Program-made: the position numbers and the translations under genes | Source: a virus | Taxonomy: Duplodnaviria; Heunggongvirae; Uroviricota; Caudoviricetes | Virus record (IMG/VR): IMGVR_UViG_3300035501_000524 | DNA length: 64,000 bases | Strand: one strand, 5' to 3' | Notes under the pieces: generated by a model | Database searches by the model: none | What the model was told of the DNA's origin: nothing | Seen by the model: the letters and a program-made list of their open reading frames with translations, nothing else | Shown: piece by piece, positions 167 to 13,482 of the stretch | Numbering within the stretch: position 1 is the stretch's first letter | Layout of the letters: every line of letters begins with the position of its first letter

Positions 167-168
167 CC

Positions 169-369: not shown

Positions 370-373
370 GAGA

Positions 374-395: not shown

Positions 396-401
396 TTTTC
401 T

Positions 402-812: not shown

Positions 813-911
813 TTTATCGACTTCCTTTCTTCATTTGATACATTAAGTATAGCACACAATTCTAGATCTGTCAAGAGTTTTTTAAACTTTTCCCCTACGG
901 GGAGGGGAGGA

Positions 912-1289
912 TTACTCCTCCTCCTCAATTTCCGCAAGCTTGAAGTAAGCTTTTCTCTTTTCCTCAAATCTGATAACTTTACCTTCATCTTTGAGCTGTC
1001 TAACAAGGGCTGTTACTTTCTGGTTTGCTAAACCTTCCAGTTCCGGAATTTCCTTCATCATCTGGGAGATTGTAGCGGAAGCACCGCCTGCAAGATGAGT
1101 AAGGATAACATTTTTCAGACCTTCATTAGCAGTCTGGGTAGCAGTCGGCTTGCGCTCTGCTGAATTTTTCTTAATGGTCTGCTCAAGAATTTTCTCAAGC
1201 TTTGTAACTGCTTCTTCATTACCTGTTGCTCTAACTGCTTCGATTGCGATTTCAAGGGCTACTTTGTTTGTCATTTTGTTGTTCATCAT
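912..1289 (-). CDS. Early protein family A, 125 aa: MTNKMTNK N-terminus and a predicted winged-helix-like C-terminus; putative DNA-binding protein
   Basis: Promoter TTGACA (rc of 1369-1374), 17 bp, TATAAT (rc of 1346-1351), with an A-tract UP element at 1375-1397. Paralogs at 2984..3361 and 5327..5710. Confidence 0.6.
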   Translation of the reverse strand: MMNNKMTNKVALEIAIEAVRATGNEEAVTKLEKILEQTIKKNSAERKPTATQTANEGLKNVILTHLAGGASATISQMMKEIPELEGLANQKVTALVRQLKDEGKVIRFEEKRKAYFKLAEIEEEE

Positions 1290-1413
1290 GGTATCTACCT
1301 CTTTCTTTCTTTTTTTTATTTGTTTTCTTTGTTCTTTATGTATTTATTATATCATGGGTTATTAGGTTTGTCAAGCTTTTTTTTTATTTTTTTTTGGATT
1401 TTTGTTTGGGGAT

Positions 1414-1776
1414 TCAATCCCCAAACATTTCCTTTACTTTGATAACTTTCTCATACTCGATGTCGAAATTTCTCCATTCACCAGAAGGCGAATAGTAGTA
1501 ATGCCCAATTGATGGGGTCAAACCATTGTAATCATCAAAAGGATTAGAAAGACCTTCTTCCTCTCCCCAATACTGGATAAACAAAGCGGCTTCTTCGGTC
1601 TTAGTTCCGATGAAGTAGGCATCTTCTAATCTCTCAACTGAATTACCTTCTTCATCTGCTAAAGTGAACTGTCCAACAACCGCATTCAGTGCAAGCTGAA
1701 ATTCATAGTTTCTGCATTCATCTTCATCCCAGAACTGTGCTCCATCATTAGCTTCATAGTAAGTTACTTCCTTCAT
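1414..1776 (-). CDS. Hypothetical early protein, about 120 aa; start moved to MKEVTYY
   Basis: The first ATG of the track ORF is the ATG inside the conserved leader ATCAAATGAAGAAAGGA. The ATG at 1774-1776 has proper spacing from the RBS. Confidence 0.5.
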   Translation of the reverse strand: MKEVTYYEANDGAQFWDEDECRNYEFQLALNAVVGQFTLADEEGNSVERLEDAYFIGTKTEEAALFIQYWGEEEGLSNPFDDYNGLTPSIGHYYYSPSGEWRNFDIEYEKVIKVKEMFGD

Positions 1777-1833
1777 TTTATCAATTCCTTTCTTCATTTG
1801 ATGTATTTATTATATCATGGGTTCGGGGTTTTG

Positions 1834-2010
1834 TCAACCCCCAAATCCAAACTTTTTAGCGATTTTTTTACATCTCGCTATTCTTGCTTCTTCATTACCG
1901 CTTTCCATCTGGAAAGTAGTGTACTTTACTTTAAAAGGATGTCCAGAAGCAACCGCTTCTGCATAGCTTGTGGTTTCAACTCCATTTACCAAATAAGATA
2001 CTTTTGTCAT
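1834..2010 (-). CDS. Hypothetical small early protein, 58 aa (MTKVSYLVNG...)
   Basis: Promoter TTGACA-17-TATAAT at about 2046-2074, leader ATCAAATGAAGAAAGAGAGG, ATG at 2008-2010. Confidence 0.5.
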   Translation of the reverse strand: MTKVSYLVNGVETTSYAEAVASGHPFKVKYTTFQMESGNEEARIARCKKIAKKFGFGG

Positions 2011-2011
2011 T

Positions 2012-2221
2012 TTACATTTCCTCTCTTTCTTCATTTGATGTAATCATTATAACATAGATTTGAGGGTCTGTCAATAGTTTTTTTAACTTTTCTCGATTTT
2101 TTCTTCTAGCTGACCGCTTTACCATGCGGGCGTCTTTTGCCCTGTTCCGATTATGAACACATTTTGCGTTGATGTCCCAACAGGTAAAGCCCACCATTGT
2201 TTCTCTCTTAAAAGCATCCAT
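2012..2221 (-). CDS. Hypothetical basic small protein (RNRAKDARMVKRSARRKNRE); the C-terminal part overlaps the next promoter, so the true end is uncertain
   Basis: Promoter TTGACA-17-GGTATAAT at about 2238-2268 and a strong RBS AAGGAGGG before the ATG at 2219-2221. Confidence 0.4.
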   Translation of the reverse strand: MDAFKRETMVGFTCWDINAKCVHNRNRAKDARMVKRSARRKNREKLKKLLTDPQIYVIMITSNEEREEM

Positions 2222-2342
2222 TGTTTGTTCCCTCCTTTACTTTCTAAAGAAATTATACCAAAATTTTGGGAAAATGTCAATTCCGGAATATTAACCAAAA
2301 TTTGAGAAGAAAATTTGTATAGATTGACTATTGACGAAAAAC

Positions 2343-2400
2343 CGGCCGTCGCATGCGACCACGGCCGGCCAATTATACTACATCTTCTGGAATTTGTCAA
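2343..2400 (-). promoter_or_regulatory. Repeated-element copy A: minus promoter TTGACA (rc of 2395-2400), 17 bp, TATAAT (rc of 2372-2377), firing directly into the GC hairpin CCGGCCGT...ACGGCCGG (2343-2368) followed by TTTTT
   Basis: A promoter, hairpin and U-run with no ORF between them. It lies about 80 nt upstream of the promoter of 2012..2221. Confidence 0.5.
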
Positions 2401-2440
2401 GTAGTAAAATTGCATAAAAAAAAGAAGCCCGAAGGCTTCT

Positions 2441-2641
2441 TTAACTGTAGAAGTATGCGGCTTCCCTCATTTCCTCCTCTGTACATTCCACATGACACAT
2501 GTCAGTTGCGTATGCGGCGACTCCTACCCAGCTTCCGGGCTTACATCTTGCATTTGCAAGATGCTTAGCATCTCGAGCCTTTTCATTCTCAATCATTCTC
2601 GCAAGCGTTAAAGAAGTATTTACCAAACCACGAACATCCAT
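2441..2641 (-). CDS. Hypothetical small early protein, 66 aa
   Basis: Promoter TTGACA-17-TATAAT at about 2662-2692, leader ATCAAAAAGAAAGAGAGG. The terminator hairpin GAAGCC-cgaa-GGCTTC at 2424-2439 has a U-run on the minus strand. Confidence 0.5.
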   Translation of the reverse strand: MDVRGLVNTSLTLARMIENEKARDAKHLANARCKPGSWVGVAAYATDMCHVECTEEEMREAAYFYS

Positions 2642-2698
2642 TTCATTTTCCTCTCTTTCTTTTTGATAGAATCATTATATCATACCTTTTGGTTAATG

Positions 2699-2899
2699 TC
2701 AATAAGAATTTTCATAATCCACAACCATTTCTTTATATCTGCCGGAAATCGTATTTCTAAGAATCCGCCATACTCTCCAAATGGGATTTCCACCCGTAAA
2801 AGCTGAATGATAAACACTCTTGAAATTGTTTAAAGATTTTCTTTCCGTCCACGCTTTAAGTGCATGGTATGTACTTGCTTTAATGTTCCATTTTGCCAT
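2699..2899 (-). CDS. Hypothetical small early protein, 66 aa
   Basis: Promoter TTGACA-17-TATAAT at about 2925-2960, leader ATCAAAAGAAAGAGAGG. Confidence 0.5.
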   Translation of the reverse strand: MAKWNIKASTYHALKAWTERKSLNNFKSVYHSAFTGGNPIWRVWRILRNTISGRYKEMVVDYENSY

Positions 2900-2983
2900 T
2901 TTTCTTTTCCTCTCTTTCTTTTGATACTGTTATTATACCATAGCGTGGACTAGTTGTCAACCCCCTTTGGGGGAAACTGAGGA

Positions 2984-3361
2984 TTATTCCTCAGTTTCAG
3001 TGTTAAGGTAAAAGTATACCTTTCTCTTTTCCTCAATTCTGATGACTACGCCATCTTCTTTGAGCTGTCTCACAATAGCGGAGACTTTCTGGTTAGACAG
3101 CCCCTCAAGGCTTGCCACACCTTTCATAATCTCTGTTACTGTCGCTCTCTTGCCATCAGACAGGAAAGCTACAATGTCTGCTTTCAGACCTTCATTAGCA
3201 ACCTGCGTTGCTGTCGGTTTTCTCTCCGCAGAGTTCTTTTTAACAGTCTGCTCAAGAATTTTCTCAAGCTTTTCAATAACCTCTGTATTCGGGGTTTCCT
3301 GTGCTCCCAGAGTTGCGATTGCGATTTCCAGTGCCTTTTTGTTAGTCATTTTGTTTGTCAT
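2984..3361 (-). CDS. Early protein family A, paralog 2, 125 aa
   Basis: Strong similarity to 912..1289 and 5327..5710 (EKLEKILEQT.KKNSAERKPTATQ.ANEGLK). Promoter at about 3407-3437. Confidence 0.6.
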   Translation of the reverse strand: MTNKMTNKKALEIAIATLGAQETPNTEVIEKLEKILEQTVKKNSAERKPTATQVANEGLKADIVAFLSDGKRATVTEIMKGVASLEGLSNQKVSAIVRQLKEDGVVIRIEEKRKVYFYLNTETEE

Positions 3362-3993
3362 AGTATCAATTCCTTTCTGGTTTTTAGAACTTTTTCCTTG
3401 TTCCTTTTGATGTTTTTATTATATCATGTTTGATAATGGTTGTCAAGAGGTTTTTGAAAAAACTTTTTTGGGTGCTTTGCTTAGGTAAGTCTTGTTTATT
3501 TGATTGAATAGTTGGTTCCTTGCCATTCTTCAACTGGAAACCGCTTACACTCTAAGCAACTGTTTGGTTTTTCTCAACCTCTGTGACTCCATTATAACAC
3601 TCTCAGCTAAGATTGTCAAGTGTTTTTTTTTATTTCATCTTCTGGATTTTCGAGGAGCGCTCAACTCGTTTTCCTTCTTGATGCTTTTATTATATCATAG
3701 CTTGAAGTGTTTGTCAAGAAGTTTTTTTTATTTTTTTTTGAAGATGGCTCTTCCGACCGCCAATTACAACCTATCCAAGTTCGACTGTTAGGCAACTTCC
3801 TTCTTGACTATGTACTTATTATAGCACATCTGGTTTAGTTTGTCAAGAGGTTTTTTTTATTTTTTTTCTTTCGGCTTCTGGAAGCCTTTCCCTCCTGACA
3901 GTTATTATAATATCACATCTACCCCTAGAATACAATTGGTAAAATGCACAAATTTTGGGAAAAATATTTGTGCAGTTTTTTCACCGGTTTTGC

Positions 3994-4023
3994 TTGACAA
4001 AATGCTGAAGCCTGTGGTATAAT
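3994..4023 (+). promoter_or_regulatory. Repeated-element copy B: plus-strand promoter TTGACA (3994-3999), 18 bp, TATAAT (4018-4023), driving three consecutive hairpins at 4031-4057, 4055-4073 and 4077-4101
   Basis: Hexamers on the plus strand inside the minus-strand gene block. Downstream is GC-rich structured sequence with no ORF. Confidence 0.5.
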
Positions 4024-4082
4024 CGAAATTCTGGCCGCGTCAGTGGAAAGCGGCCAGCCCAATTATCGGGCTGACCTTAGGC

Positions 4083-4367
4083 TTACAGCTGATAGCCTAA
4101 GCCTTTCAGCAGGTCAATTAGCTGTTCACTCTTGGTGTACTGACGATGGTTCGGGATGAGTACAGCGGCTACCACCTCAGCTTTGTATCCGGTGTCGAAC
4201 TCCGGATCATCCAGAGCCTCCTGAGGAGTCATGAACTGGATGCGGTTGATGATGGTCACGTTGCCATCGGCGTCATTCGCATCGAGGAAGTCAGCCGCCT
4301 CAAACGGGTCAGCGAACAGTGCGTTGTATTCAGCTCCATTGATTGTCATGTAATATTTGTCTAACAT
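4083..4367 (-). CDS. Hypothetical early protein, about 94 aa (MLDKYYMTINGAEYNALF...); the track ORF start at 4541 was rejected
   Basis: Promoter TTGACA (rc of 4422-4427), 17 bp, TATAAT (rc of 4399-4404), and the leader ATCAAATGAAAGAGAGG lie inside the track ORF. The real ATG is at 4365-4367. Confidence 0.5.
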   Translation of the reverse strand: MLDKYYMTINGAEYNALFADPFEAADFLDANDADGNVTIINRIQFMTPQEALDDPEFDTGYKAEVVAAVLIPNHRQYTKSEQLIDLLKGLGYQL

Positions 4368-4510
4368 TTTCATTACCTCTCTTTCATTTGATAAGACTAT
4401 TATAATGCCTACGTGCCATTTTGTCAACCCATTTCGGGAAATTCGTTTAAAAAATTTTGCACAAAGATTTCCAAAAGAAAAACTCTGAACTATACAAACT
4501 GCACAAAAAC

Positions 4511-4570
4511 CGCCCCGCGCAAGCGTAATCGGGCGGCCCAATTATACTTCACCTTTTGGATTTTGTCAAT
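4511..4570 (-). promoter_or_regulatory. Repeated-element copy C: minus promoter TTGACA (rc of 4565-4570), 18 bp, TATAAT (rc of 4541-4546), firing into a GC hairpin at 4511-4537 followed by TTTTT
   Basis: Same architecture as copy A, flanked by several TGCACAAA motifs. Confidence 0.5.
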
Positions 4571-4641
4571 AGGCAAAATGCACAAAATTTTGATTCGTCA
4601 TTTTGCACAAAAACGTGCTTTGTGCAAATTGCACAAAAAAA

Positions 4642-4675
4642 ATGACCCCTATTTTCTGGGGTCATTTTTTTTAAA
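4642..4675. terminator. Bidirectional terminator: hairpin ATGACCCC-tattttct-GGGGTCAT with T-runs on both sides
   Basis: Perfect 8-bp GC-containing stem flanked by A8 and T8 runs. Confidence 0.6.
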
Positions 4676-4822
4676 CCAGCTGTAAGGTAAAGCGGTTTTC
4701 ATGTTCCAACAGATGCGCCTGTATTGCGCTTTTACCCTTTGCGAGAATCTCACCTGTTTCTAAATCCAAAAGAATGTTATCTGCATTTTTGTCGATTACT
4801 AAACCGAAATGTTTCATGTTTT
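4676..4822 (-). CDS. Small hypothetical protein, 48 aa (MKHFGLVIDKNADNILLDLETGEILAKGK...); not in the ORF track
   Basis: RBS AAAGGAGATAAAAAC before the ATG at 4820-4822, stop at 4676-4678. Confidence 0.35.
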
Positions 4823-4863
4823 TATCTCCTTTGCGCTTTTCCTATTTTTTGGTTTTTCGCCCC

Positions 4864-5232
4864 CTATTTTCTGGGGGCGCTCAAAACCACTTTGTATTTT
4901 GTATCATGGAAGTGAAAAACAAACTCTCTTTCTGGGTTCGCAACTTCATCAACCGCAATTCCCAAACTGTCAGACAACGCTTGAATCATGGTTGAAACCA
5001 GTTCTTCCTTGTCTGGATTCTTTTTCTTTTCCCTCTTGGAAGTATCAAACTTATAAGCTGTCACCTTTCTTTCAACCTGTCTTGCTTTCTTGGAAGCTTT
5101 TTCCTGTTCCTTAGATAAATCAAAAAGCTTTTCGCCTTTATCAATCCGCTCATCATCTTCAATCAGCTGAATTGCTTCTTCTCTTGTTAAACCGAGCAAT
5201 TTCATTTGCTTTGCAATCAGTTTTTCATTCAT
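4864..5232 (-). CDS. Early protein family B, paralog 2, 122 aa (KQMKLLGLTREEAIQLI SAP-like N-terminus)
   Basis: Paralog of 402..812. It lies immediately downstream of the family A gene 5327..5710, the same A-then-B order as 912..1289 and 402..812. Confidence 0.6.
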   Translation of the reverse strand: MNEKLIAKQMKLLGLTREEAIQLIEDDERIDKGEKLFDLSKEQEKASKKARQVERKVTAYKFDTSKREKKKNPDKEELVSTMIQALSDSLGIAVDEVANPEREFVFHFHDTKYKVVLSAPRK

Positions 5233-5326
5233 GCTGTTTTATCTCCTCTCTTTAGCTTATACTTTATTCTATCACAGCCGATTGAGATTGTCAAGGGGAA
5301 ATTTGCATTTCCCCTTGATTTTTTCT

Positions 5327-5710
5327 TTACTCTTCTTCCTCAGAAGAGTTGTAAGCGAAATACGCTTTCCGCTTTTCCTCGATTCTCACAACCAGATTTT
5401 CCTCTTTCAGATTTCTCACAAGAGCGGTTACTTTCTGGTTAGCAAGACCCTCGAGTTCCGGAACTTCTTTCATCAGTTCCGAAATTGTCTTTTTCTCACC
5501 TGTCGCTTTCAGATAAGCGAGAATGTTTTCTTTCAGACCCTCATTTGCGGTCTGAGTTGCTGTTGGCTTTCTCTCAGCCGAGTTTTTCTTGATTGTCTGT
5601 TCAAGAATTTTTTCCAATTTCTCGATAACCTCTGTATTAGGAGTTGCCTGAGCGTTCATAACCTCGATTGCGATTTCCAGTGCTTTTTTGTTTGTCATTT
5701 TGTTTGTCAT
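5327..5710 (-). CDS. Early protein family A, paralog 3, 127 aa
   Basis: Promoter TTGACA-17-TATAAT at about 5762-5795 with a long A-tract UP element. Confidence 0.6.
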   Translation of the reverse strand: MTNKMTNKKALEIAIEVMNAQATPNTEVIEKLEKILEQTIKKNSAERKPTATQTANEGLKENILAYLKATGEKKTISELMKEVPELEGLANQKVTALVRNLKEENLVVRIEEKRKAYFAYNSSEEEE

Positions 5711-5933
5711 AATACCTACCTCTTTCTTTCTTTTAATTTTTATTTTGTTTTCTTTATGTATTTATTATATCATAGGGTTTTATGTTTGTCAAGACTTTTT
5801 TTTTTATTTTTTTTTTCTTTTTTTTTATTTCACTCTTGACTTTCCTTCCCTTGCTACTCTTTAATGATACCACAGGTTGACTTGTTTGTCAAGCTTTTTT
5901 TTTATTTTTTTTTCGCCGTCCTTGTGGGCTTGT

Positions 5934-6632
5934 TTAAGCCCACAACTTCCGAACCATTTTCTTGTGCTGTTTAAAACAGTATGCAAGAATTTCTTTTTCA
6001 ATTAAAACATCTTCTAAACCAGTGTGGTTTTCAGAAAATTCATTGTTTTTTGAAATAAATCTGTAAAGGATTTCAGCGGTAAACCGAAGTCTGCCATTTT
6101 TGGTCAAATAACCATTTTCTTCACAAAATTTCTGATAAGTTGGCATTTTTCCAATAACCTGTCTTGACATTTTCAAAGTGTCGCAAATTTCAGTTCCATA
6201 AGGAAAGAAAAACCGATATTTTGATTTTGTCAGCCATCTTTGCGTATTATTTAAAGTTCCATAGTCAAAACGCATGTTGTGCGCATAGACTTCTTTTACC
6301 TCATAGAGTTTCATGTCATCTGCAAGCTGTTTTCTGATTTCATAGAAACTTGCAACAACTCTTTTGCCCTCTGCAATTTCCTTTTTATACATCGGAATTT
6401 TTTTTGCATAATAGCTTGACTTCATCAGCTCTTTTTCTTTATTGAAAATTTCATCAACAACAAAACTTCTTGCTACATACACAACACCCCTTTTATCAAC
6501 TACCGCCCAACCTATATCATAGGAAAACATGTTGCTAGGAAGAACATCTTCCAGAGTATTGTCAAGCGGACAACTCTCGCAATCTAAAACTACCTTGTAA
6601 CTAATTCTTCTGTCAATTTTTTTCTGCTCCAT
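5934..6632 (-). CDS. DEDDh-type 3'-5' exonuclease-like protein (DnaQ/RNase T/oligoribonuclease fold), 232 aa
   Basis: Candidate exonuclease motifs: I VLDCESCPLD (D.E), II YAHNMRFDYGTL (H/N..FD), III HTGLEDVLIEKE (H....D). Recognised from the motifs, not from an alignment. Confidence 0.45.
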   Translation of the reverse strand: MEQKKIDRRISYKVVLDCESCPLDNTLEDVLPSNMFSYDIGWAVVDKRGVVYVARSFVVDEIFNKEKELMKSSYYAKKIPMYKKEIAEGKRVVASFYEIRKQLADDMKLYEVKEVYAHNMRFDYGTLNNTQRWLTKSKYRFFFPYGTEICDTLKMSRQVIGKMPTYQKFCEENGYLTKNGRLRFTAEILYRFISKNNEFSENHTGLEDVLIEKEILAYCFKQHKKMVRKLWA

Positions 6633-6962
6633 TTCTTTTTACCTCTCTGTTCTTTATGTATTTATTATATCATGGAGTAGGAAGTTTGTCAAGCATTTTT
6701 TTTATTTATTTTTATTTTTTTTTTGTTTGCTCTTGACTTCTGTTCCCCTCAACTGATAAACCTATTATAAGCCTTTTCATCATAGAATACAATAGGCAAT
6801 CTGCACAAAGATGATAGAAAATTTTTGTTAATTCTGCCAGGAGTAAAAGTTGCACAAAGTTTTGCCATGAAGTTTGTGCAGGTTGCCCATTGACACGCCC
6901 CAGGCTAGCAAAGTGCCCAATTTCGGGAGAATTTAAGCGAGAAAATTTGTGCAACTTTTCGC

Positions 6963-6991
6963 TTGACAAAAGCTGAGCCGTGTGGTATAAT
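6963..6991 (+). promoter_or_regulatory. Repeated-element copy D: plus promoter TTGACA (6963-6968), 17 bp, TATAAT (6986-6991)
   Basis: Consensus hexamers. The transcript would begin at the GC hairpin 7001-7024 and end at the terminator 7081-7125. Confidence 0.55.
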
Positions 6992-7000
6992 GGAAATTTC

Positions 7001-7024
7001 GCCGGCCCAGGTGCGTGGCCGGCG
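7001..7024. other. GC-rich palindromic hairpin GCCGGCC-caggtgcgt-GGCCGGC lying between convergent promoters
   Basis: Stem read directly. Analogous GC hairpins occur in copies A, B, C and E with different stem sequences. Confidence 0.5.
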
Positions 7025-7028
7025 CGCC

Positions 7029-7057
7029 ATTTTACATCATCTCCTGGAATTTGTCAA
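7029..7057 (-). promoter_or_regulatory. Repeated-element copy D: minus promoter TTGACA (rc of 7052-7057), 17 bp, TAAAAT (rc of 7029-7034), converging on hairpin 7001-7024
   Basis: Hexamers read as the reverse complement. There is no gene downstream on the minus strand before the promoter of 5934..6632. Confidence 0.5.
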
Positions 7058-7080
7058 TAGGCAATTTAGACAAAAATTTA

Positions 7081-7125
7081 GAGTCAAGTTTATGCAACTT
7101 GACTCTTGACTTTTTACTTTTATTT
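7081..7125. terminator. Hairpin GAGTCAAGTT-tatgc-AACTTGACTC plus a T-rich run, the plus-strand terminator for the copy-D transcript; it also follows the stop of minus gene 7132..7341
   Basis: 10-bp perfect stem followed by TTGACTTTTTACTTTTATTTG on the plus strand, and by AAATTTTT on the minus strand. Confidence 0.5.
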
Positions 7126-7131
7126 GTCCCT

Positions 7132-7341
7132 TTAATCCTCGTAGAAATTCACTGGATAAATCTGCTCATCGTAGTAATAGCCTTCTTCTTCCATCTGTTG
7201 GCGCGCTTCTTCTTTTTCTTTTTCCTCGCTCTCTTTAAACCGATAGTTTAAATAATAGGTTTCAAAGGCTTGCATTGCTAACTCTTTTGTTGCGTACGCT
7301 CCAATGTCTCCATCACTATCCCAAACGTAAATTCTTTTCAT
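7132..7341 (-). CDS. Hypothetical small acidic protein, 69 aa
   Basis: ORF with an upstream promoter-like TTGACA at 7382-7387 (rc). Confidence 0.45.
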   Translation of the reverse strand: MKRIYVWDSDGDIGAYATKELAMQAFETYYLNYRFKESEEKEKEEARQQMEEEGYYYDEQIYPVNFYED

Positions 7342-7407
7342 TGTATCAACCTCTTTTCTTTTTTCTTTATTATACCACTGTTGACGCCCCCTGTCAAGGG
7401 GAAATTC

Positions 7408-7848
7408 TCAGAAGCTTCTGAGAATTTCCATGATGTTCTGAACATCGAAAGCATTTGCGCCCCATTCTGTTCTGTTTCTTTCTTCATCATCAAACAGGAA
7501 ACCTGTTCTGTCAGATACTACCGAACTTTTTGGTGTTCCATAAGTGACAATTTTGATTTCATCCCATTCAATACTCGGAAGATGTTTAGCAAGCCATTTC
7601 AGCTTTGTTGCGGTAACTTCTGCATTGAACTCTGGTGAACCACTCTTGGAAAGCCATGATACAATTCCGATTCTGTAACCGCTGTTCTGCAATCTGTGAA
7701 GCTGTCTTGCGAAACTTGAAAAGTTTAAAAGCGGTTTTGCAATTTCATAAGGTCTTGTGTTCGAGTTCATTAAATCTTCCAGCCATCCCTCTACTCCATA
7801 GAAGTTTGCGATTGTTCCATCCATGTCGAAATAAATTGTTCTTGTCAT
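7408..7848 (-). CDS. HAD-superfamily 5'(3')-deoxyribonucleotidase-like phosphatase, 146 aa
   Basis: N-terminal IYFDMDGTIANF (the DxDGT phosphoryl-acceptor motif of HAD and NT5C-type dNMP nucleotidases) and a later FDDEERN acidic motif. Confidence 0.5.
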   Translation of the reverse strand: MTRTIYFDMDGTIANFYGVEGWLEDLMNSNTRPYEIAKPLLNFSSFARQLHRLQNSGYRIGIVSWLSKSGSPEFNAEVTATKLKWLAKHLPSIEWDEIKIVTYGTPKSSVVSDRTGFLFDDEERNRTEWGANAFDVQNIMEILRSF

Positions 7849-7928
7849 TTTATCTACCTCTTTCTTTCTTTCTTTTGATAATATTATTATAACCTATTTT
7901 TTGGTAATTGTCAAGTATTTTCTTTTAA

Positions 7929-8048
7929 CTATTTTAAAGTTATTTTATAGCCATTAGCATCCTTTTCTACCACATACAAGAACTGATTTTCTTTTAAATA
8001 CTTTTCTGCCTTTTCAAAAGCTTCCTTAGTTGTGTACAAGATTGACAT
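7929..8048 (-). CDS. Small hypothetical protein, 39 aa (MSILYTTKEAFEKAEKYLKENQ...); not in the ORF track
   Basis: Promoter TTGACA-17-TAGAAT at about 8076-8106, RBS AAAGAGAGG, ATG at 8046-8048. Confidence 0.3.
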   Translation of the reverse strand: MSILYTTKEAFEKAEKYLKENQFLYVVEKDANGYKITLK

Positions 8049-8103
8049 TTCATTTACCTCTCTTTTAAGTTATACCTTATTCTATCACAATCTTTTTAGT
8101 TTG

Positions 8104-8718
8104 TCAAGAGGCTTTTTTAAAAGCCCCTTGAAAATAACTCTGATAAATTTTATCAGCTTCGATTAAATCAAAGTTCGTATTGATAAATCTGTCATTCTTT
8201 TTAAAAGAATTTGGATATCTTCTAATGTAAATTGAACGAAAATAGCTTTCTAACCCCTCTGCCGGAAAATCCATACAGTCATACACTCTGTGAATCACTG
8301 CCCTAACCGCGCCCATCTTTTTGTAAGTATCACTGTTTAATTCCTCTGTTAATCTTTTTCTAATTTCTCTAGTCGTAGTTCCAACTTTTGAACACAATAC
8401 GTTGTCATTATCATCGAAAAAGGTAAATAGATAACATTTTTGTTTTGCTTCATCCAGAAGTGATGGACAGTCAGAAGAAACTAGAATCTTTTCAGTATTT
8501 TTTGTTTTTCTTTTGGTTTCAATCTGACTAATTTCTTTTACCGCATTCTCGAAGGGGTCAAGAATATATTTTTTTGCTAACTCTTTGCAGTGTTCAAAAA
8601 TTGTCTTGCAAACTTCAAACCATTTCTTCTTCCAGTTCTTTGAAGTGTTTTCAAGTCTTTCTTTTGCGCCTTCAAAATCATCATTTTTTACATACCAATC
8701 CATTGATTTATTTGCCAT
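8104..8718 (-). CDS. Hypothetical early protein, about 204 aa (start at MANKSMDWYV)
   Basis: The conserved leader is translated as KERKKEM at the front of the track ORF. Promoter at about 8740-8775. Confidence 0.5.
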   Translation of the reverse strand: MANKSMDWYVKNDDFEGAKERLENTSKNWKKKWFEVCKTIFEHCKELAKKYILDPFENAVKEISQIETKRKTKNTEKILVSSDCPSLLDEAKQKCYLFTFFDDNDNVLCSKVGTTTREIRKRLTEELNSDTYKKMGAVRAVIHRVYDCMDFPAEGLESYFRSIYIRRYPNSFKKNDRFINTNFDLIEADKIYQSYFQGAFKKAS

Positions 8719-8786
8719 TTCTTTTTTCCTCTCTTTCATTTGATAATGTTATTATAGCACCGAACGTGCGGTTTGTCAACACTTTT

Positions 8787-8990
8787 TTATTTATTTACGA
8801 TTTTGTCAAGTAAAATTCCCAGATAGTATTCTGTAAAGGTACATGGACGCATTACAAAATCTTCTTTATTCCATTTATCATACTTAAGCGCCATTTTATT
8901 AAGCATCTGCTGTTTATTCCGAATTGGATATTTTGATTTAATAAAATAATTATTTGAATCCCCAGTAATTTTGACTAATCCGTAATACAT
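8787..8990 (-). CDS. Hypothetical small protein, about 67 aa (start at MYYGLVKITG)
   Basis: RBS GAAAGAGAGG before the ATG at 8988-8990. TTGACAGG at 9045-9052 (rc) serves as the -35. Confidence 0.4.
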   Translation of the reverse strand: MYYGLVKITGDSNNYFIKSKYPIRNKQQMLNKMALKYDKWNKEDFVMRPCTFTEYYLGILLDKIVNK

Positions 8991-9010
8991 TCTGTTTACC
9001 TCTCTTTCTA

Positions 9011-9199
9011 TCAATTATTATACTCTAACTCTTTCAACCTGTCAAGAGTTTTTTCAATATTTTTCTGATATTTATGTGTTCGATTCTCTCGACACCATTC
9101 ACATGAGCCATGATTCCGACATTGACAATCAATTGCCTTTGCTCCTCTATACATTTTTCTATGTTCTTTTCCGCTCATTATTGCCTTTTCCATGCTCAT
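9011..9199 (-). CDS. Small Cys-rich zinc-ribbon-like protein, about 62 aa (CQCRNHGSCEWC)
   Basis: C-x-C...C-x2-C spacing. Leader ATCAAAAGAGAGGAG before the ATG. Confidence 0.45.
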   Translation of the reverse strand: MSMEKAIMSGKEHRKMYRGAKAIDCQCRNHGSCEWCRENRTHKYQKNIEKTLDRLKELEYNN

Positions 9200-9266
9200 T
9201 GTTTTATCTCCTCTCTTTTGATACATTTATTATAACAGAAGGGGTTGAACTTGTCAACCCCTTTTT

Positions 9267-9713
9267 TTAAAATTTTTCTGTAAAAATTACATAACCTTCA
9301 CGATAACCGCCGAAACAATCATCAAATTCTTTGTCACTACCTTCAATTTCATAATCGTTAATAAGATAATTAACTAACTGATTTCTAAATTTACGAATCC
9401 ATTTTCTATCTTTTCTTGCAAATTCTTTCATTTTATTATTCCAGAGGAATGTTCTTGTATTAACTTCCAGACCATCAGAATCAAAAGTCTCACAAATTTT
9501 TGGAATGTTTCTGTCAAGAACCTCTTTAGCCTGCTCCTCAGACCACACAAGCTTTTCGCCCTGTTTCTCTTTATATTTTTCAACTACTCGATATCCAACA
9601 TAGAGAGGATACAGAATCACTCTCATAACCTTGTAGCCATTCTCATTCCACCATTCTCTAACAATGTGTTCTCTTTTTACCTGTCTTGCATTCATCATTT
9701 CCTCAAATCTCAT
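9267..9713 (-). CDS. Hypothetical early protein, 148 aa
   Basis: ORF with promoter TTGACG-17-TATAAT at about 9745-9778. Confidence 0.5.
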   Translation of the reverse strand: MRFEEMMNARQVKREHIVREWWNENGYKVMRVILYPLYVGYRVVEKYKEKQGEKLVWSEEQAKEVLDRNIPKICETFDSDGLEVNTRTFLWNNKMKEFARKDRKWIRKFRNQLVNYLINDYEIEGSDKEFDDCFGGYREGYVIFTEKF

Positions 9714-9797
9714 TTTATTTACCTCTCTTTCTATCCTTACCTTGTAAATACATTATAGCATAGGTTTGTGAGTACGTCAAGCTTTTTTTAATTTTTT

Positions 9798-9935
9798 TTA
9801 ATTCCAATCATATTCCATGGCATCCTCATAATCTATATTATGACGCTTACACCAATTTTTAAAATTTTTTACTGAACCGCTTGCAATTACTACATCAATA
9901 TATTCTTCTGTTGTTAATTCATCAATTTTTCTCAT
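9798..9935 (-). CDS. Hypothetical small protein, about 45 aa (start at MRKIDELTTEEY)
   Basis: The leader is translated as SKEREVNKM at the front of the track ORF. Confidence 0.35.
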   Translation of the reverse strand: MRKIDELTTEEYIDVVIASGSVKNFKNWCKRHNIDYEDAMEYDWN

Positions 9936-10003
9936 TTTATTTACCTCTCTTTCTTTTGATAGTATTATTATAACGCCTTTACGTTCATTTGTCAATACTT
10001 TTT

Positions 10004-10210
10004 TTAAATTAGTTGAAAACAATTCATGATGTTAACGTAACTATTGCAAGAAAATTCTCTAACTGTTTTTGATAAAAATTTCAACATGATTTTTTTAACA
10101 ATAGTTTCTGGTAGAGTTTTTATCATTTCCCTTTCAATAGTATTGTAAATTCCATTTGGTAATTCATACATCTTCATGGTGTCAAACTCTTCTATTGTCA
10201 ATAATCTCAT
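10004..10210 (-). CDS. Hypothetical small protein, about 68 aa (MRLLTIEEFDTMKMYELPNG...)
   Basis: Promoter TTGACT-17-TATAAT at about 10232-10262, leader ATCAAATAAAGGAAGAGG. Confidence 0.45.
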   Translation of the reverse strand: MRLLTIEEFDTMKMYELPNGIYNTIEREMIKTLPETIVKKIMLKFLSKTVREFSCNSYVNIMNCFQLI

Positions 10211-10379
10211 TTTCAAGTTCCTCTTCCTTTATTTGATGATATCATTATACCACCACCCATTCCAGAAGTCAAGCAAAAATTGCACAAAAATTAAGTAAAA
10301 ATTTTGGTTATTTTTTCCTATTGTGCAAAGTGACGAAATTTCGGGATTCCGACCGGAAAATATTTGTGCAATCTGCCTA

Positions 10380-10408
10380 TTGACAAAATTGCGGGGTGGT
10401 GGTATAAT
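10380..10408 (+). promoter_or_regulatory. Repeated-element copy E: plus promoter TTGACA (10380-10385), 17 bp, TATAAT (10403-10408), driving GC hairpin 10418-10445 and then the bidirectional terminator hairpin 10464-10485
   Basis: Consensus hexamers on the plus strand within the minus-strand gene block. No ORF downstream. Confidence 0.5.
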
Positions 10409-10483
10409 TGAAAATTCCGGCCGCAAGGACAGTGCGCGGCCGGTCAAAAATTGAAACAAAAAAGAGCTAATTTCTTAGCTCTT

Positions 10484-10657
10484 TCACTTAAATATCAACT
10501 TAATAATTATCACCGCAACCCAAACCACAAAGGCCAAACCCCAGGTGAATGTAATGAACACTCCGGCAAACTGAAGAACAAACAGCAAAAGCCAAAGCAA
10601 GCCCGCAGTAAATAAGAAGTCAAGTAGTAATGTAAATAATACTGTTAGTGCTAACAT
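10484..10657 (-). CDS. Small hydrophobic membrane protein, 57 aa (two predicted TM helices); not in the ORF track
   Basis: ATG at 10655-10657 after AGAGAGGAGAAAAAG. An unusually long leader of about 100 nt, GC-rich, follows the promoter at 10758-10790. Confidence 0.4.
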   Translation of the reverse strand: MLALTVLFTLLLDFLFTAGLLWLLLFVLQFAGVFITFTWGLAFVVWVAVIIIKLIFK

Positions 10658-10787
10658 GTTCTTTTTCTCCTCTCTTTTGGAGGCTGAGAGCCTTTCCTCG
10701 GCATCGCCTCGTGTTCAAGACAACACTGGTACTTTTGGCTCCCGACACCTCTTTCTTGATGATTTAATAATACCACACTTTTGGTTA

Positions 10788-11036
10788 TTAGTCAAGCCTT
10801 TTTCTTGTTCTATTTACAGATTCAAGTAAACATGCATCAGCGAAAAAATAAATCACATGAGACCATTTTAAAGATTCTTTTGCATAGACTAACAAATCTT
10901 CTTCTGTTGGATTCTCTGGAATGCCTGATTTTCTCCAAGTGTCAATACTTTCTTGGCACTCTGTATTCATTACGTATTTCTCCATCTGTTGGAGCAAATG
11001 AAGTCTTATTTCTATTATTTCTTCCTTGCTATACAT
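10788..11036 (-). CDS. Hypothetical small protein, about 82 aa (start at MYSKEEIIEIRLH); its stop codon lies inside the -35 box of the next promoter
   Basis: ATGTATAG start/stop overlap with the upstream small gene. Confidence 0.45.
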   Translation of the reverse strand: MYSKEEIIEIRLHLLQQMEKYVMNTECQESIDTWRKSGIPENPTEEDLLVYAKESLKWSHVIYFFADACLLESVNRTRKRLD

Positions 11037-11169
11037 TGCGCTCCTCCTCTTGCTTAACAATGAACTGTAATAGTTCTATTAAGTCCTTTACATCATCTAT
11101 TGTCCCTATCTCAATGGCGTGTTCGCTATCACAACCATAGAAAATTTTATTATCTTGTTCAATGTTCAT
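11029..11169 (-). CDS. Small hypothetical protein, 46 aa (MNIEQDNKIFYGCDSEHAIEIG...); not in the ORF track
   Basis: RBS AGAGAGGAGAAGG. Start overlaps the stop of the upstream gene (ATGA). Confidence 0.3.
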   Translation of the reverse strand: MNIEQDNKIFYGCDSEHAIEIGTIDDVKDLIELLQFIVKQEEERNV

Positions 11170-11309
11170 TTTTCCTTCTCCTCTCTAAGAATTTTATTAA
11201 TGAGGTTTTTGATTTCTTTTAAATCTTCCAAATCGCAGTAAACTTTGTCGCCCCAACCGCCTTTAATTGTGTATGGATAATTTTTATCGTCGCTTCTTTC
11301 GATTGTCAT
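11166..11309 (-). CDS. Small hypothetical protein, 47 aa (MTIERSDDKNYPYTIKGGWGDKVYCD...); not in the ORF track
   Basis: Promoter TTGACA-17-TACAAT at about 11340-11372, leader ATCAAAAAGAAAAGGAG. Confidence 0.3.
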   Translation of the reverse strand: MTIERSDDKNYPYTIKGGWGDKVYCDLEDLKEIKNLINKILREEKEK

Positions 11310-11384
11310 TGTATGCAACTCCTTTTCTTTTTGATAATGTTATTGTATCACAGGGGCTGACATTTGTCAACCCCTTTTTTGAAA

Positions 11385-11798
11385 TTATTTCTGACTGATG
11401 TTAAAATCATCATTTCTATCATACAGATAGTTTGACATGAAGTCTGTTTCATCACAACCATTTACCATCATCAGAGAATACTCTTTATCTCCAAAACCAT
11501 AGAGAAGCTGTCTAATTGTTTTACCCTTTGCATAAGCATAACCGCATTCCCATGCTGTCCCGCTGTCTGAATACATCCCGAAGTTGAGAACCCACACTTC
11601 ATCAGCTTTGTCGATTGCGTCAACATCCTGCTGGAAAACCTTCCTACCCCATGTTGCATTGTCTAAATCCCACGCATTTTCAATTTCATGTTCTATTGGA
11701 GCGTAAACTTCCAAACCTTGCGCGCGCATCTTCTGGAGAATTTGAACATACATTACTCTTTCATTATTTTTGAACCATGGACTTGCTAAATAAATCAT
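11385..11798 (-). CDS. Nucleoside 2-deoxyribosyltransferase-like protein (NDT/RCL family), about 138 aa
   Basis: N-terminal MIYLASPWF, matching the IY.AGPWF motif of the NDT family, plus a later D.D..D...G..SDSGTAWECGYAYAKGK block resembling the family's catalytic-Glu region. Confidence 0.55.
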   Translation of the reverse strand: MIYLASPWFKNNERVMYVQILQKMRAQGLEVYAPIEHEIENAWDLDNATWGRKVFQQDVDAIDKADEVWVLNFGMYSDSGTAWECGYAYAKGKTIRQLLYGFGDKEYSLMMVNGCDETDFMSNYLYDRNDDFNISQK

Positions 11799-11987
11799 TG
11801 TATCAACCTCTTTCTTTTTTGATAATATTATAATATCATATTTTTTGGTAATTGTCAATAGTTATTTTTCACGTTTTAGGTTTGGACTTAATGCCCAAAC
11901 CTAATGTAGTGATTCATCCAGTTTTCGCTGAACTGCTCTTTGAACTCTTCCGCATACTCTGTATTATAACCCCTTCTGGGGCTTTTG

Positions 11988-12170
11988 TCAAGCCCCTTTT
12001 TCAAGAACTTTTATTAAATCTTCCTTTACGCAAAAGGTTCTTTTATCTCTCTTAACTGAAAAAGGACAGTTCATACAACCAATTCCAATACAGTTAGGCT
12101 CAATTAAAAGTTCGATTGCCTTAATCTCTTCTTCGTCCAGAAGTCCCCTTTTAACAACAACAGTTTTCAT
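11988..12170 (-). CDS. Small Cys-rich protein, about 60 aa (CIGIGCMNCPF...C)
   Basis: Leader AAAAGAGAGGAATTAAAAAG before the ATG at 12168-12170. Confidence 0.4.
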   Translation of the reverse strand: MKTVVVKRGLLDEEEIKAIELLIEPNCIGIGCMNCPFSVKRDKRTFCVKEDLIKVLEKGA

Positions 12171-12241
12171 CTTTTTAATTCCTCTCTTTCTTTTGATGTA
12201 TTTATTATAGCATGAAGGTTGACGTTTATCAACCCCCAATT

Positions 12242-12394
12242 TTAATCATCCTCTGTTTCCCAATATTCATCATCTTCATCCCAGAATGCCGCGAAATCAT
12301 CACATTCTTCTATTGGATTATCAATTCCGCAAGTTCCATCTTTCTTCCAGTGGGGACAATCCCAACCATTAACAGGACAATACACTTTCTTCAT
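12242..12394 (-). CDS. Small Cys-rich protein with acidic tail, 50 aa, family C (NGWDCPHWKKDGTCG...EECDDF...DDEYWETEDD); not in the ORF track
   Basis: Promoter TTGACA-17-TATAAT at about 12420-12455. Shares the WDCP...G.C...acidic-tail pattern with 169..309. Confidence 0.4.
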   Translation of the reverse strand: MKKVYCPVNGWDCPHWKKDGTCGIDNPIEECDDFAAFWDEDDEYWETEDD

Positions 12395-12463
12395 TTTTAT
12401 CAATTCCTTTCTTCTTTTGATATTATCATTATAACATGGATTGACTTAATTGTCAACAAGAAA

Positions 12464-12937
12464 TTATAATTTCTTGTTGATTTCTGTTACATTGTATTTC
12501 ACATGATATTTCTGCAAAATATCTTTGATGATAGCACTTTCTTCTCTGGTCTTACTGAAAATGTCGATGTTGTAATAGGTTTCATCTTTGTAAACTACTT
12601 CACCACAAGTATAACTAACTGAGAATGGTTCTAACTTGTTGACTAACTCTTTATCTTTTGAAGTAACTGAGATTTTCCACAAACAATCTTTCTTGCATTT
12701 TTCCATGAGCCAAATTGACGCATACACACCAATTAAATTAGTTAAGATGGTTACCGTAACAGTGATACCTAAGTCAAGACTAGCTAACTGTTTAACCACA
12801 ACCGCGTAGAATCCGTAGGACAGTGCGTTGATTGCCGCCGCGGTCTTTTTACCTGCGCGCACGGTTAAGATTGATTTCATTGTTGACAGCATTACATTGA
12901 TTAAACTACATGTAAAAAATATTATAATTGCTTGCAT
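12464..12937 (-). CDS. Membrane protein, about 157 aa: N-terminal transmembrane segments and a C-terminal soluble domain
   Basis: Start at MQAIIIFF after GAGAGAGGAG. The hydrophobic N-terminal half is read directly from the translation. Confidence 0.5.
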   Translation of the reverse strand: MQAIIIFFTCSLINVMLSTMKSILTVRAGKKTAAAINALSYGFYAVVVKQLASLDLGITVTVTILTNLIGVYASIWLMEKCKKDCLWKISVTSKDKELVNKLEPFSVSYTCGEVVYKDETYYNIDIFSKTREESAIIKDILQKYHVKYNVTEINKKL

Positions 12938-13008
12938 TTCTTTTATTCTCCTCTCTCTTGGAACTATAATTATTATACCCCGAAAGGGGTTATTTGTCAA
13001 CCCCTATT

Positions 13009-13386
13009 TCATTTATTTCTTAACATTTTAATTTCATTTTTGATTGCATTAATAGCTTCTTCACATTCAGCGATTTTCTTTTTCTTAGTTGTTTCTTTCA
13101 TTGTTTTACTTGCATAGATTCTATTTTCTTCTGCAAACCATCTATTCAGACTACGCGTTTTGAATTCAATAGTTCTCTTCTGAGAAGCTAATTCCCTTGC
13201 CTTTTTCTCTTCTTTGTTGTCGCCTCTAACCTCTACGATTTCTACCATTGCTACAGTTGCAATTCCATTTTCATTTGTTGAGATGGTTTTAAAATAATCT
13301 CCTACGTGATATTTTTTAGCTTCTTTATTAGAAATAGTTGCTACTACGTATTCTTCATGACCATTTCTTGCGATAATCTCTTTCAT
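13009..13386 (-). CDS. Hypothetical early protein, 125 aa, Lys-rich C-terminus
   Basis: ORF with promoter TTGACA-17-TATAAT at about 13430-13465. Confidence 0.5.
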   Translation of the reverse strand: MKEIIARNGHEEYVVATISNKEAKKYHVGDYFKTISTNENGIATVAMVEIVEVRGDNKEEKKARELASQKRTIEFKTRSLNRWFAEENRIYASKTMKETTKKKKIAECEEAINAIKNEIKMLRNK

Positions 13387-13482
13387 TTTATTCCACCAAA
13401 TCCCTTTAGGATTTCCCTTTCTTTATTATGTAATTATTATACCATGGGGCTGACCTTTTGTCAACCCCTTTTGGAAAATTTT

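Follow-up and report, generated by a model that had tools for sequence, protein, structure and literature searches.

What might a phage gain by aiming two promoters at each other across a single GC-rich palindrome? The question is raised by positions 6963–7125 of a 64,000-nucleotide (nt) stretch of DNA, hereafter the window, from IMG/VR virus record IMGVR_UViG_3300035501_000524 (Caudoviricetes). A preliminary description, made from the sequence alone, had labeled this site copy D and suggested that its head-on promoters might serve a genetic switch or give rise to an RNA-based regulator or anti-defense RNA. The underlying observation is confirmed by our analysis and its interpretation partly supported. 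Within the early region of a large siphovirus of gut Clostridia, transcribed by host sigma-A, copy D represents a conserved, polar intergenic cassette in its complete form. The cassette family is real, under selection and previously undescribed.

Two promoters converge on a GC-only hairpin in copy D

The core of copy D and its two neighboring genes comprise the following elements (rc, reverse complement).

6947–6954, plus strand: TTGTGCAA box, an exact match 8 nt upstream of the −35 of the plus promoter
6963–6991, plus strand: type-1 promoter; TTGACA 6963–6968, 17-nt spacer ending TGTGG, TG 6983–6984, TATAAT 6986–6991 (12/12 in the promoter scan, extended −10)
6992–6999, plus strand: leader GGAAATTT; plus-strand start predicted at 6996–7001
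7000–7024, both strands: GC-only hairpin or palindrome; CGCCGGCC 7000–7007, loop caggtgcgt 7008–7016, GGCCGGCG 7017–7024 (8 bp + 9 nt + 8 bp, 25 nt)
7057–7029, minus strand: type-2 promoter; TTGACA rc 7057–7052, 17 nt, TAAAAT rc 7034–7029 (11/12 in the scan, without TG)
7080–7120, both strands: bidirectional stem-loop; an A-run, the stem-loop 7080–7106 (11 bp), then TGAC-T5-AC-T4 (scanned on both strands)
7132–7341, minus strand: gene X, 69 aa, acidic, grand average of hydropathy (GRAVY) −1.22, no family; its 3′ end is faced by the plus promoter
5934–6632, minus strand: gene Y, 232 aa, phrog_20187, function unknown; proximal promoter at 6692–6664

Both promoters that had been noticed are present and match the sigma-70/sigma-A definition by sequence, with hexamers 17 bp apart and a TRTG −16 motif on the plus strand only. 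The palindrome between them is present as well, one pair longer than the 7001–7024 originally reported. The minus promoter is co-directional with the early genes, has its −10 at 4 nt from the hairpin, and belongs to a repeat family (D17) with further copies at 2367–2422 and 4536–4591. Canonical starts, ~7 nt past each −10, are predicted at ~6998–7001 on the plus strand and at ~7023 on the minus strand. They lie only ~25 bp apart, and interference between the head-on promoters is a reasonable inference. A plus start at the predicted position leaves 0–2, at most 4, unpaired nt ahead of the hairpin. With its 9-nt loop and with tails CGCCATTTTAC on the plus and AAATTTCC on the minus strand, the hairpin does not match the definition of an intrinsic terminator (U-tract).

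The stem-loop at 7080–7106 matches that definition on both strands; its plus-strand T-run begins 4 nt past the stem, and efficiency there is uncertain. Together with its T-runs it spans 7080–7120, corresponding to the downstream terminator of the preliminary description, and it is kept in three relatives (L103–L105). It serves as the minus-strand terminator of gene X and is the probable 3′ end of the plus-strand RNA. Folding this RNA in silico (6994–7122), as had been proposed, yields exactly two hairpins (7000–7024 and 7080–7106) with a minimum free energy of −37.8 kcal/mol (z = −4.05; 0 of 200 shuffles as stable). No ORF (open reading frame) with a ribosome-binding site (RBS) was found in the plus transcript. 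An ORF-less RNA of about 120 nt, as originally suggested, is predicted for copy D (~115–125 nt); it is a peculiarity of this copy and not conserved. The predicted antisense overlap in copy D is limited to the terminator and the 25-nt palindrome. The whole stretch 6633–7131 is non-coding; the ORFs listed there begin upstream of the predicted starts, and close relatives have an indel within it. The minus-strand transcript, described earlier as entering this gene-less stretch, would not end there: the scan reports no minus-strand terminator between 7000 and 6633, and the product would be a long-leader mRNA of gene Y.

The cassette recurs in the window and in related contigs

GC-only hairpins with shared flanks occur six times in the window, at 34–60, 2342–2368 (A), 4031–4057 (B), 4510–4536 (C), 7000–7024 (D) and 10417–10443 (E), so that the label copy D fits a series A to E plus one. 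A covariance model built from units of other contigs and then run on the window recovers 6 of 6 copies, all on the plus strand, with the copy-D hairpin matched at 6986–7033 (E = 0.005). Six copies in the same orientation, and a family present in more than 100 related contigs, speak against a genetic switch in the sense of a unique device. The cassette consists of a box promoter (TTTGTGCAA-N2-TGCCTA-TTGACA-17-TRTGnTATAAT), a 7–8 nt leader GRAAATT, a GC-only hairpin of ~27 nt and a CCAAAA tail. Hairpin-linked promoters carry TTTGTGCAA-N2-TGCC-TA directly ahead of the −35 (repeat family D19), unlike ordinary early promoters, which carry A-tract upstream elements (repeat families D1–D5). The exact box TTGTGCAA has 13 matches in the window, all within 1–15006 and grouped near hairpins. 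The motif GGCCGS is found 24 times (5.0 ± 2.4 expected), concentrated in hairpins.

The 20-nt box/−35 pattern was detected in 70 IMG/VR loci, mostly on contigs of 50–180 kb and all with the box spacing upstream of the −35 kept. It was further detected in 32 contigs of metagenome-assembled genomes (MAGs), mostly binned as Clostridia, and in 0 isolate genomes. The motif does not mark an obvious host transcription-factor regulon, since the MAG contigs that carry it resemble mis-binned phage contigs and isolate genomes have none. Most loci aligned on the box motif read box, TTGACA, 17-nt spacer ending TRTGG, TATAAT, GRAAATT, GC-only hairpin and CCAAAA. Units were classed as type 1 when the −10 lies 6–10 nt (mostly 7–8) before the hairpin, and as type 2 when it lies 1–5 nt before it. 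Extraction gave 88 distinct type-1 units and 54 type-2 units; the covariance model gave 116 matches across related contigs, 90 of them distinct. The logo of the 88 type-1 units is the Gram-positive consensus TTGACA-AAA...TRTGg-TATAAT followed by the leader GRAAATT, and spacer conservation, tried as a sign of a mobile element, is explained by this AAA/TRTG promoter consensus. The distance from −10 to hairpin is 7–8 nt in 46 of 58 units. At this distance, typical of type 1, or at the 2–5 nt of type 2, a canonical start would fall at or inside the stem base. Hairpin spans peak at 27 nt, with a second class of 37–39 nt, and genomes carry ~3–10 cassettes each. In the cassette alignment, every type-1 box has upstream of it the inverted box of the next sense promoter, forming a divergent pair.

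A third class (type 3), comprising 54 of 249 GC hairpins and exemplified by copies A and C, has no antisense −10, and an A5/T5 abuts the stem. From their sequence these hairpins look like sense-strand intrinsic terminators (hairpin + T5). Type-1 tails hold on average 1.2 T in 7 nt across the family, the U-tract being confined to type-3 variants. Selection for an antisense-strand terminator was looked for and not found family-wide.

Base pairing of the hairpin is conserved

When 26 units, picked as hairpin formers, are aligned without gaps, the 8-bp helix is 91.8% paired, compared with 65.7% in column shuffles and 27–41% in slid registers, and 42 double-sided changes are counted against 12.4 expected. 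The 90 distinct model matches are 95.9% paired, with 162 double-sided changes and covariation at 8 of 8 pairs. The association of box and hairpin was determined on all perfect consensus promoters in the fetched loci, for which the hairpin was not used as a selection criterion. Of 141 promoters with the TTGTGCAA box, 89 have a GC hairpin no more than 12 nt from the −10, compared with 29 of 602 promoters without the box (odds ratio 34, p = 5e-52). Stems vary among copies of one genome (CCGGCCGT, CTGGCCGC, CCGCCC, CGCCGGCC, CCGGCCGC), and G-C to C-G swaps are distributed ~50:50 at two stem positions. No conserved loop or RNA body was found across the family beyond the stem and its short flanks; a candidate loop motif, GGACCGTG, proved to be confined to a subset of related contigs. 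Judging from these alignments, the GC hairpin is kept by compensatory changes, with pairing rather than sequence appearing as the conserved property.

Box promoters point against the early genes

No same-strand ORF lies within 700 nt of 55 of the 57 type-1 promoters, and in 34 of the 57 a convergent ORF ends within 150 nt. At loci oriented by a homolog of gene Y, all model matches (22/22) are antisense. The box promoter always fires against the early-gene strand, toward the 3′ end of the preceding gene, and the unit is always located just beyond the 3′ end and terminator of an early gene. The convergent genes encode, across the family, unrelated, small and mostly acidic proteins. A Shine-Dalgarno (SD) sequence, start codon and ORF within 80 nt are found at 47–76% of promoters without a hairpin versus 3 of 136 with one.

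Beyond the hairpin, the stem-loop that follows usually terminates the neighboring gene on the sense strand; an A-run precedes it (mean 5.1 of 9), and few T come after (mean 2.5 of 9). At least four T past this stem are seen in 12 of 61 units, the remaining 49 lacking an antisense-strand T-run. Copy D has T-runs to either side of the stem and should belong to the minority expected to give a discrete short RNA, of which L109 and L110 are another clean case. In L109 and L110, tRNA-like sequences also seem to be present in the non-coding stretch beside the cassette, ~300–650 nt beyond the type-1 unit.

Where two promoters flank one hairpin, they are a type-1 and a type-2 promoter in 10 of 10 cases of the first set; the larger set contains 17 such pairs versus 4 of type 2 with type 2. 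The facing promoter is an accessory, present at 17 of 73 type-1 hairpins, and the conserved core consists of the antisense type-1 promoter and the hairpin rather than of the convergent pair initially placed at the center. Type-2 promoters are co-directional with genes, ~65% of them having a gene start 81–450 nt downstream. Right flanks of orthologous hairpins in L006/L054 versus L059/L065 diverge exactly from the hairpin.

Cassette E (10380–10451, plus) faces an extremely hydrophobic peptide of 57 aa (10484–10657, minus; GRAVY 2.15) with which it has a terminator in common. The arrangement resembles a type I toxin-antitoxin pair and is an exception within the family. As a general explanation, type I toxin-antitoxin systems were rejected: gene X is acidic and hydrophilic, the convergent genes vary widely and are mostly acidic, and a hydrophobic peptide is faced by copy E alone.

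Further boxes and the surrounding early region

In addition to its core, copy D is surrounded by the following elements.

6874–6929, plus strand: degenerate extra box unit; TTGTGCAG 6874–6881, 8 nt, TTGACA 6890–6895 without −10, conserved CCCAATTTCGGGAG 6916–6929 (family D19)
6801–6808 and 6850–6857, minus strand: two inverted TTGCACAA-type boxes (TTGTGCAG rc and TTGTGCAA rc, respectively), part of the sense-direction control region
6792–6764, minus strand: box promoter TTGTAT-17-TATAAT, from sequence
7066–7073, minus strand: degenerate box of the minus promoter, rc TTGTCTAA, a 6/8 match 8 nt upstream of its −35, spaced as the other boxes are

Compared with L103–L105, the window carries an extra ~45-nt box duplication at 6800–6870. 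These relatives, in which gene Y is 97% identical, have an extra gene of ~215 nt exactly between the copy-D terminator and gene X. Seven boxes of the TTGCACAA/TTGTGCAA type lie in both orientations around cassette C (4440–4640), three of them within 34 bp (4603–4636), and this cluster looks like an operator array for a box-binding factor. A near-perfect 54-bp palindrome at 14961–15020 holds two back-to-back boxes (GGCAGATTGCACAAA...TTTGTGCAATCTGCC) flanked by TAGACA on the minus and TTGACA on the plus side; the plus side lacks a good −10, and an equal structure is found in L037. Three paralogous early genes on the minus strand (942–1290, 3011–3361 and 5327–5710; ~116–127 aa, 70–77% nucleotide identity; repeat families D6, D8, D9 and D15) are possible candidates for DNA-binding proteins that recognize the box. 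One of them has a weak, sub-threshold Penicillinase_R/winged-helix match (E = 0.0013).

The window comes from the genome of a large siphovirus-type phage, with a GC content of ~32–39%. Among published genomes, the nearest by portal protein (40% identity) belongs to the uncultivated human-gut phage phAss-1 (PMC10607447). An early-type region of small minus-strand genes without assigned function takes up the first ~17 kb, nearly every gene lying behind its own perfect TTGACA-17-TATAAT. A scan of 20 kb returned 29 perfect (12/12) matches and 110 promoter-like sites, compared with 62 expected. About 30 small ORFans occupy the minus strand of positions 1–16900, an almost identical block (RBS, leader, TATAAT, spacer, TTGACA, A-tract) preceding each of them, and the repeat families of this region, 17–20 copies of 54–71 nt, have a layout like that of the PeSL cassettes discussed below, here in a Gram-positive phage. 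The −35 TTGACA of many sense promoters lies inside a GGGG.../...CCCC stem-loop, as at 5290–5319, 11978–11996, 12452–12481 and 12985–13005 (also at 9235–9265, 11350–11371 and 13445–13466). A T-run follows these stem-loops on the plus (antisense) strand, making them terminator-like for antisense transcription. Terminator-like sites number 40 versus 12 expected, about half of them on the non-coding strand.

From ~17 kb on every long gene is on the plus strand, in a block encoding a sigma factor, a terminase-like protein, the portal, virion proteins, a 3386-aa ORF and other giant ORFs. The sigma factor (16963–17973, plus; phrog_5767, E = 1.5e-49) is the first gene of this block; its C-terminal region has weak HNH/endonuclease VII-like matches, and a divergent promoter pair (16853/16859) precedes it. 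Two GC-richer, non-coding and promoterless stretches, at 15020–15300 and 1–170, contain a decayed hairpin unit (GAAAATTCGGTCC...) and repeated motifs of the CGCTAAAG/TTAAAGTG type, which also adjoin hairpins in L046, L061 and L064. These stretches could possibly be a genome end, a packaging site or an origin.

Database comparisons of the locus were largely negative. Rfam 15 gave 0 matches at the gathering score over the whole window and none at the copy-D site at E ≤ 1 (scan of 1–17000); weak sub-threshold matches elsewhere (Histone3 at 8105–8151, sraA and others) look like ordinary terminator hairpins. A scan of the window for tRNA and tmRNA genes found none. A blastn search of cultured phages retrieved nothing beyond promoter look-alikes of AT-rich sequence, in Cp-7 and phage G. 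The first 25 kb of phAss-1 lack the cassette, and the phAss-1 paper is silent on promoters. Among proteins of flanking genes, Pfam and PHROGs searches returned only phrog_20187 and a deoxyribonucleotidase-like match for 7408–7848. A literature search on the raw motif found only unrelated primer sequences.

Relation to known regulatory elements

The cassette belongs with known kinds of element, namely PeSL-like cassettes, cis-antisense promoters and 5′ stabilizer stem-loops, in a form not described before. The closest described objects are the PeSL cassettes. In T4-type phages these are repeated blocks of a strong promoter and a GC stem-loop among early ORFans, and they mediate modular shuffling (PMC2839356, PMC4122927). 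Like the present cassette, a PeSL is a composite repeated intergenic block of a strong host-sigma promoter and a GC-rich stem-loop among early ORFans of no known function, and both sit at indel or mosaic junctions between close relatives. PeSLs are, however, co-directional with the genes, have their stem-loop upstream of or within the promoter, where it terminates upstream transcription, and end in an SD sequence and start codon (PMC2839356). The cassette instead has an antisense promoter (22/22), a hairpin 7–8 nt past the −10 and a gene start within 80 nt in only 3 of 136 cases. It also carries the TTGTGCAA box in place of an AT-rich upstream region, resides in a Clostridia siphovirus and has no sequence relationship to PeSLs.

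Face-to-face promoter pairs and short antisense RNAs are familiar from temperate phages, as in Pant/Psar and sar RNA of P22, pR/pL of coliphage 186 and oop RNA of lambda. Convergent strong promoters tens of bp apart, a short, ORF-less, terminated RNA complementary to the end of a neighboring mRNA, and an expected occlusion or collision interference are common to these and, by prediction, to copy D. The temperate-phage examples are single-copy parts of a lysis/lysogeny switch with defined targets, whereas the cassette is multicopy and generic, follows unrelated genes, usually lacks the facing promoter and belongs to a phage that looks lytic; moreover, its starts are ~25 bp apart with the palindrome in common. 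Conserved antisense promoters are also described for early regions of lytic phages (LUZ19 P001 and its Phikmvvirus counterparts, and the antisense RNAs of PAK_P3), for which a block of early transcription has been proposed (PMC10914365). As with the cassette, a conserved promoter within or close to the early region opposes the coding strand. They are phage-RNA-polymerase or uncharacterized promoters, one or few per genome and without a 5′ hairpin module, whereas the cassette has host-type consensus promoters and a covarying 5′ hairpin in 3–10 copies per genome.

The hairpin itself recalls 5′ stabilizer stem-loops of the E. coli ompA/papA leader and B. subtilis aprE/ermC types (PMC3997798). There, a stable stem-loop of any pairing sequence lies a few nt from the 5′ end and can protect it in place of a bound ribosome; the cassette hairpin would be placed likewise at the predicted starts, and its anticorrelation with an RBS matches this. 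The known stabilizers are single leaders of protein-coding mRNAs; the cassette's putative cap would sit on non-coding antisense RNAs and long leaders, in a palindrome common to opposed promoters, and some copies double as a sense terminator. The predicted overlap of convergent transcripts at unit ends also recalls excludons (PMC12288877), for which interference and RNase III-type decay have been proposed; both excludon partners are protein-coding units, whereas one partner here is a dedicated non-coding promoter cassette. An identity with the lambda nut or HK022 put sites was rejected: loops are unconserved, a second conserved element is absent and there is usually no same-strand terminator.

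Possible functions of the cassette

We tentatively favor, at somewhat short of even chances, a hairpin-capped, stable non-coding antisense RNA (~115–125 nt in copy D) that works in cis, through interference, insulation or antisense pairing. Host RNA polymerase would start at the base of the hairpin or within ~2 nt of it, sequestering the RNA 5′ end from birth. The hairpin would then shield a transcript without RBS from the 5′-end-dependent decay (RppH/RNase J route) of Firmicutes. In these bacteria 5′ ends are protected by a bound ribosome or a 5′-terminal stem-loop, and B. subtilis RppH requires at least 2 unpaired 5′ nucleotides (PMC3997798). The anticorrelation of hairpin and RBS, the most informative of our statistics, and a sequence-variable stem flush with the predicted start fit a 5′ cap for RNAs that are unable to recruit a ribosome. 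Such a cap would serve the non-coding antisense RNAs of type 1 as well as the long leaders of type 2, its palindromic nature making it usable by both strands.

In copy D, the RNA would stop at the bidirectional terminator (7080–7120), producing a stable two-hairpin RNA complementary to the 3′ end of the gene X mRNA, while in most family members it would run on, antisense, into the neighboring gene. The second promoter (7057–7029) would start ~25 bp away on the other strand, inside the shared palindrome, and the long-leader mRNA of gene Y (leader ~390 nt, from the type-2 promoter) would gain the same 5′ cap. Footprints of two open complexes with starts ~25 bp apart would overlap. The two promoters of copy D may therefore be mutually exclusive, with two polymerases unable to occupy both at once. 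Antisense transcript and head-on polymerases may insulate or down-tune neighboring early transcription units. In cis, antisense transcription could interfere head-on with read-through or insulate very strong tandem units from one another, or its RNA could pair with the preceding mRNA at the 3′ end or terminator. Through the box, some factor or the alpha subunit of the polymerase may set how active promoters of this class are. Were type-2 transcription of copies A and C to start within the 5′ arm, the element's own transcripts might escape the terminator that stops read-through. A generic cis role appears likelier than the trans-acting regulator or anti-defense RNA considered at first, because nothing past the hairpin is conserved in the transcript and no Rfam family matches.

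Several points weigh against this proposal. The mechanism rests on architecture and statistics, with starts, termination and stability all inferred, and the choice of units that form hairpins inflates the covariation figures. The leader lacks an ideally placed purine, and the start could leave 4–5 unpaired nt. Type-3 hairpins (54/249) show that the hairpin has at least one other use, and only ~5 of ~30 intergenic regions in the window contain the cassette, which is odd for a general insulator. Stem positions 1, 6 and 7 are nearly invariant (C-G, C-G and G-C), a hint of sequence-specific recognition, for which a pure stability cap would have no use. The cap model also leaves the spans of ~27 and ~38 nt unexplained. 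Stem mismatches show no strand bias (7 G-T versus 6 A-C) and thus do not single out the RNA of one given strand, rather than DNA or both strands, as the selected object.

The last three points would suit an element acting at the DNA level, in which palindrome and boxes, as duplex or cruciform, form for example an operator for an early regulator or, between strongly transcribed units, a gyrase-type site or topological barrier, the RNA hairpin being incidental. The two span classes differ by about one helical turn, boxes occur in inverted pairs and arrays around hairpins, and hairpins persist after loss of the antisense −10 (type 3). We nevertheless consider it unlikely. One sequence-specific protein could not read all stems, given their differences within a genome and the ~50:50 G-C/C-G swaps, and GC-only 8-bp arms with GC-rich centers of 9–13 nt are known to be poor cruciform formers. 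Moreover, the hairpin position is tied to the −10, and hence to the start site, within 1–2 nt, and the anticorrelation with a nearby RBS is a property of transcripts. A trans-acting small RNA, protein sponge or anti-defense RNA, whose 5′ hairpin, A-rich linker and terminator titrate a host factor or pair with distant targets, would account for the neat two-hairpin RNAs of ~70–125 nt behind very strong promoters in copies D and E and in L109/L110, for L109/L110 units without an adjoining convergent gene, for the multiple copies in each genome and for the self-complementary GAAATTTC in the leader. It is, in our estimate, rather unlikely, as conservation is limited to the stem and short flanks, with loops and linkers varying in sequence and length, the missing T-run in 49 of 61 units leaves no conserved 3′ end, and there is no Rfam match. 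The stem differences among copies of one genome also argue, at the sequence level, against mimicry of a single CRISPR repeat or of one antitoxin RNA.

A cassette with little function of its own, providing homology for modular exchange of early ORFans as PeSLs do in T4-type phages (PMC2839356, PMC4122927), strikes us as improbable, and might be an added consequence instead of an alternative. It would fit an early region dense with small ORFans that each have a conserved promoter block (the 17–20-copy families), the common decayed variants and the mosaic junctions, such as the gene inserted past the copy-D terminator in L103–L105 and the flank switch at the hairpin in L006/L054 versus L059/L065. 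Homology for recombination needs no compensatory upkeep of base pairs, though, and requires neither strict antisense polarity nor the anticorrelation with an RBS. We hold a nut/put-like antitermination device, or a Q-type device with a short terminated RNA, for plus-strand read-through toward the late genes to be quite improbable. There is a promoter-proximal GC hairpin after very strong promoters, copy D yields a short terminated RNA by prediction, and the three active type-1 promoters of the window (3994, 6963 and 10380) face the plus-strand late region that starts with the sigma factor at 16963. Set against this are the absence of a conserved loop or boxA-like sequence, one simple hairpin compared with the two-stem put RNA, the lack of a same-strand terminator to override in most units, a late region with its own sigma factor, and 7–13 kb of antisense early genes to be crossed. 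The slightest chance is given to replication-origin-type primer or R-loop promoters, whose GC-rich transcript would prime or activate DNA synthesis. Iteron-like box arrays and short ORF-less transcripts beside A-rich tracts recall the phage precedents lambda oop/ori, T4 oriF/oriG and T7 phi1.1, but the presence of five to ten copies in each genome, placed at ordinary gene boundaries, a self-paired GC hairpin competing with the RNA-DNA hybrid and the absence of a conserved DNA-unwinding element make such a role very improbable.

Implications for early gene control in large Firmicute phages

A bolder extension of the capped cis-antisense RNA is a factor-controlled head-on system. A box-binding regulator of phage or host origin would switch on 3–10 hairpin-capped antisense promoters at once, silencing or partitioning the host-takeover genes, with one palindrome acting as a 5′ cap for both strands and as a read-through terminator. 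We regard this as doubtful; if true, it would be a new modular way of timing early-gene shut-off in a virulent phage. To our knowledge, insulation and shut-off of early promoters have hardly been studied beyond SPO1 and T4. Should our reading of the cassette hold, widespread uncultivated gut Clostridia phages would carry a compact, reusable part (Gram-positive promoter, box and 5′ GC hairpin) aimed against their own early genes. How large virulent Firmicute phages shut off their dozens of very strong early promoters, or insulate them, would become open to concrete tests, and the PeSL notion of mobile regulatory cassettes would be carried over to Gram-positive phages, with a new geometry. The cassette would further supply strong promoter, 5′ stabilizer and terminator parts for engineering of Clostridia. 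For recognizing this phage group in metagenomes, the box motif provides a sharp sequence tag.

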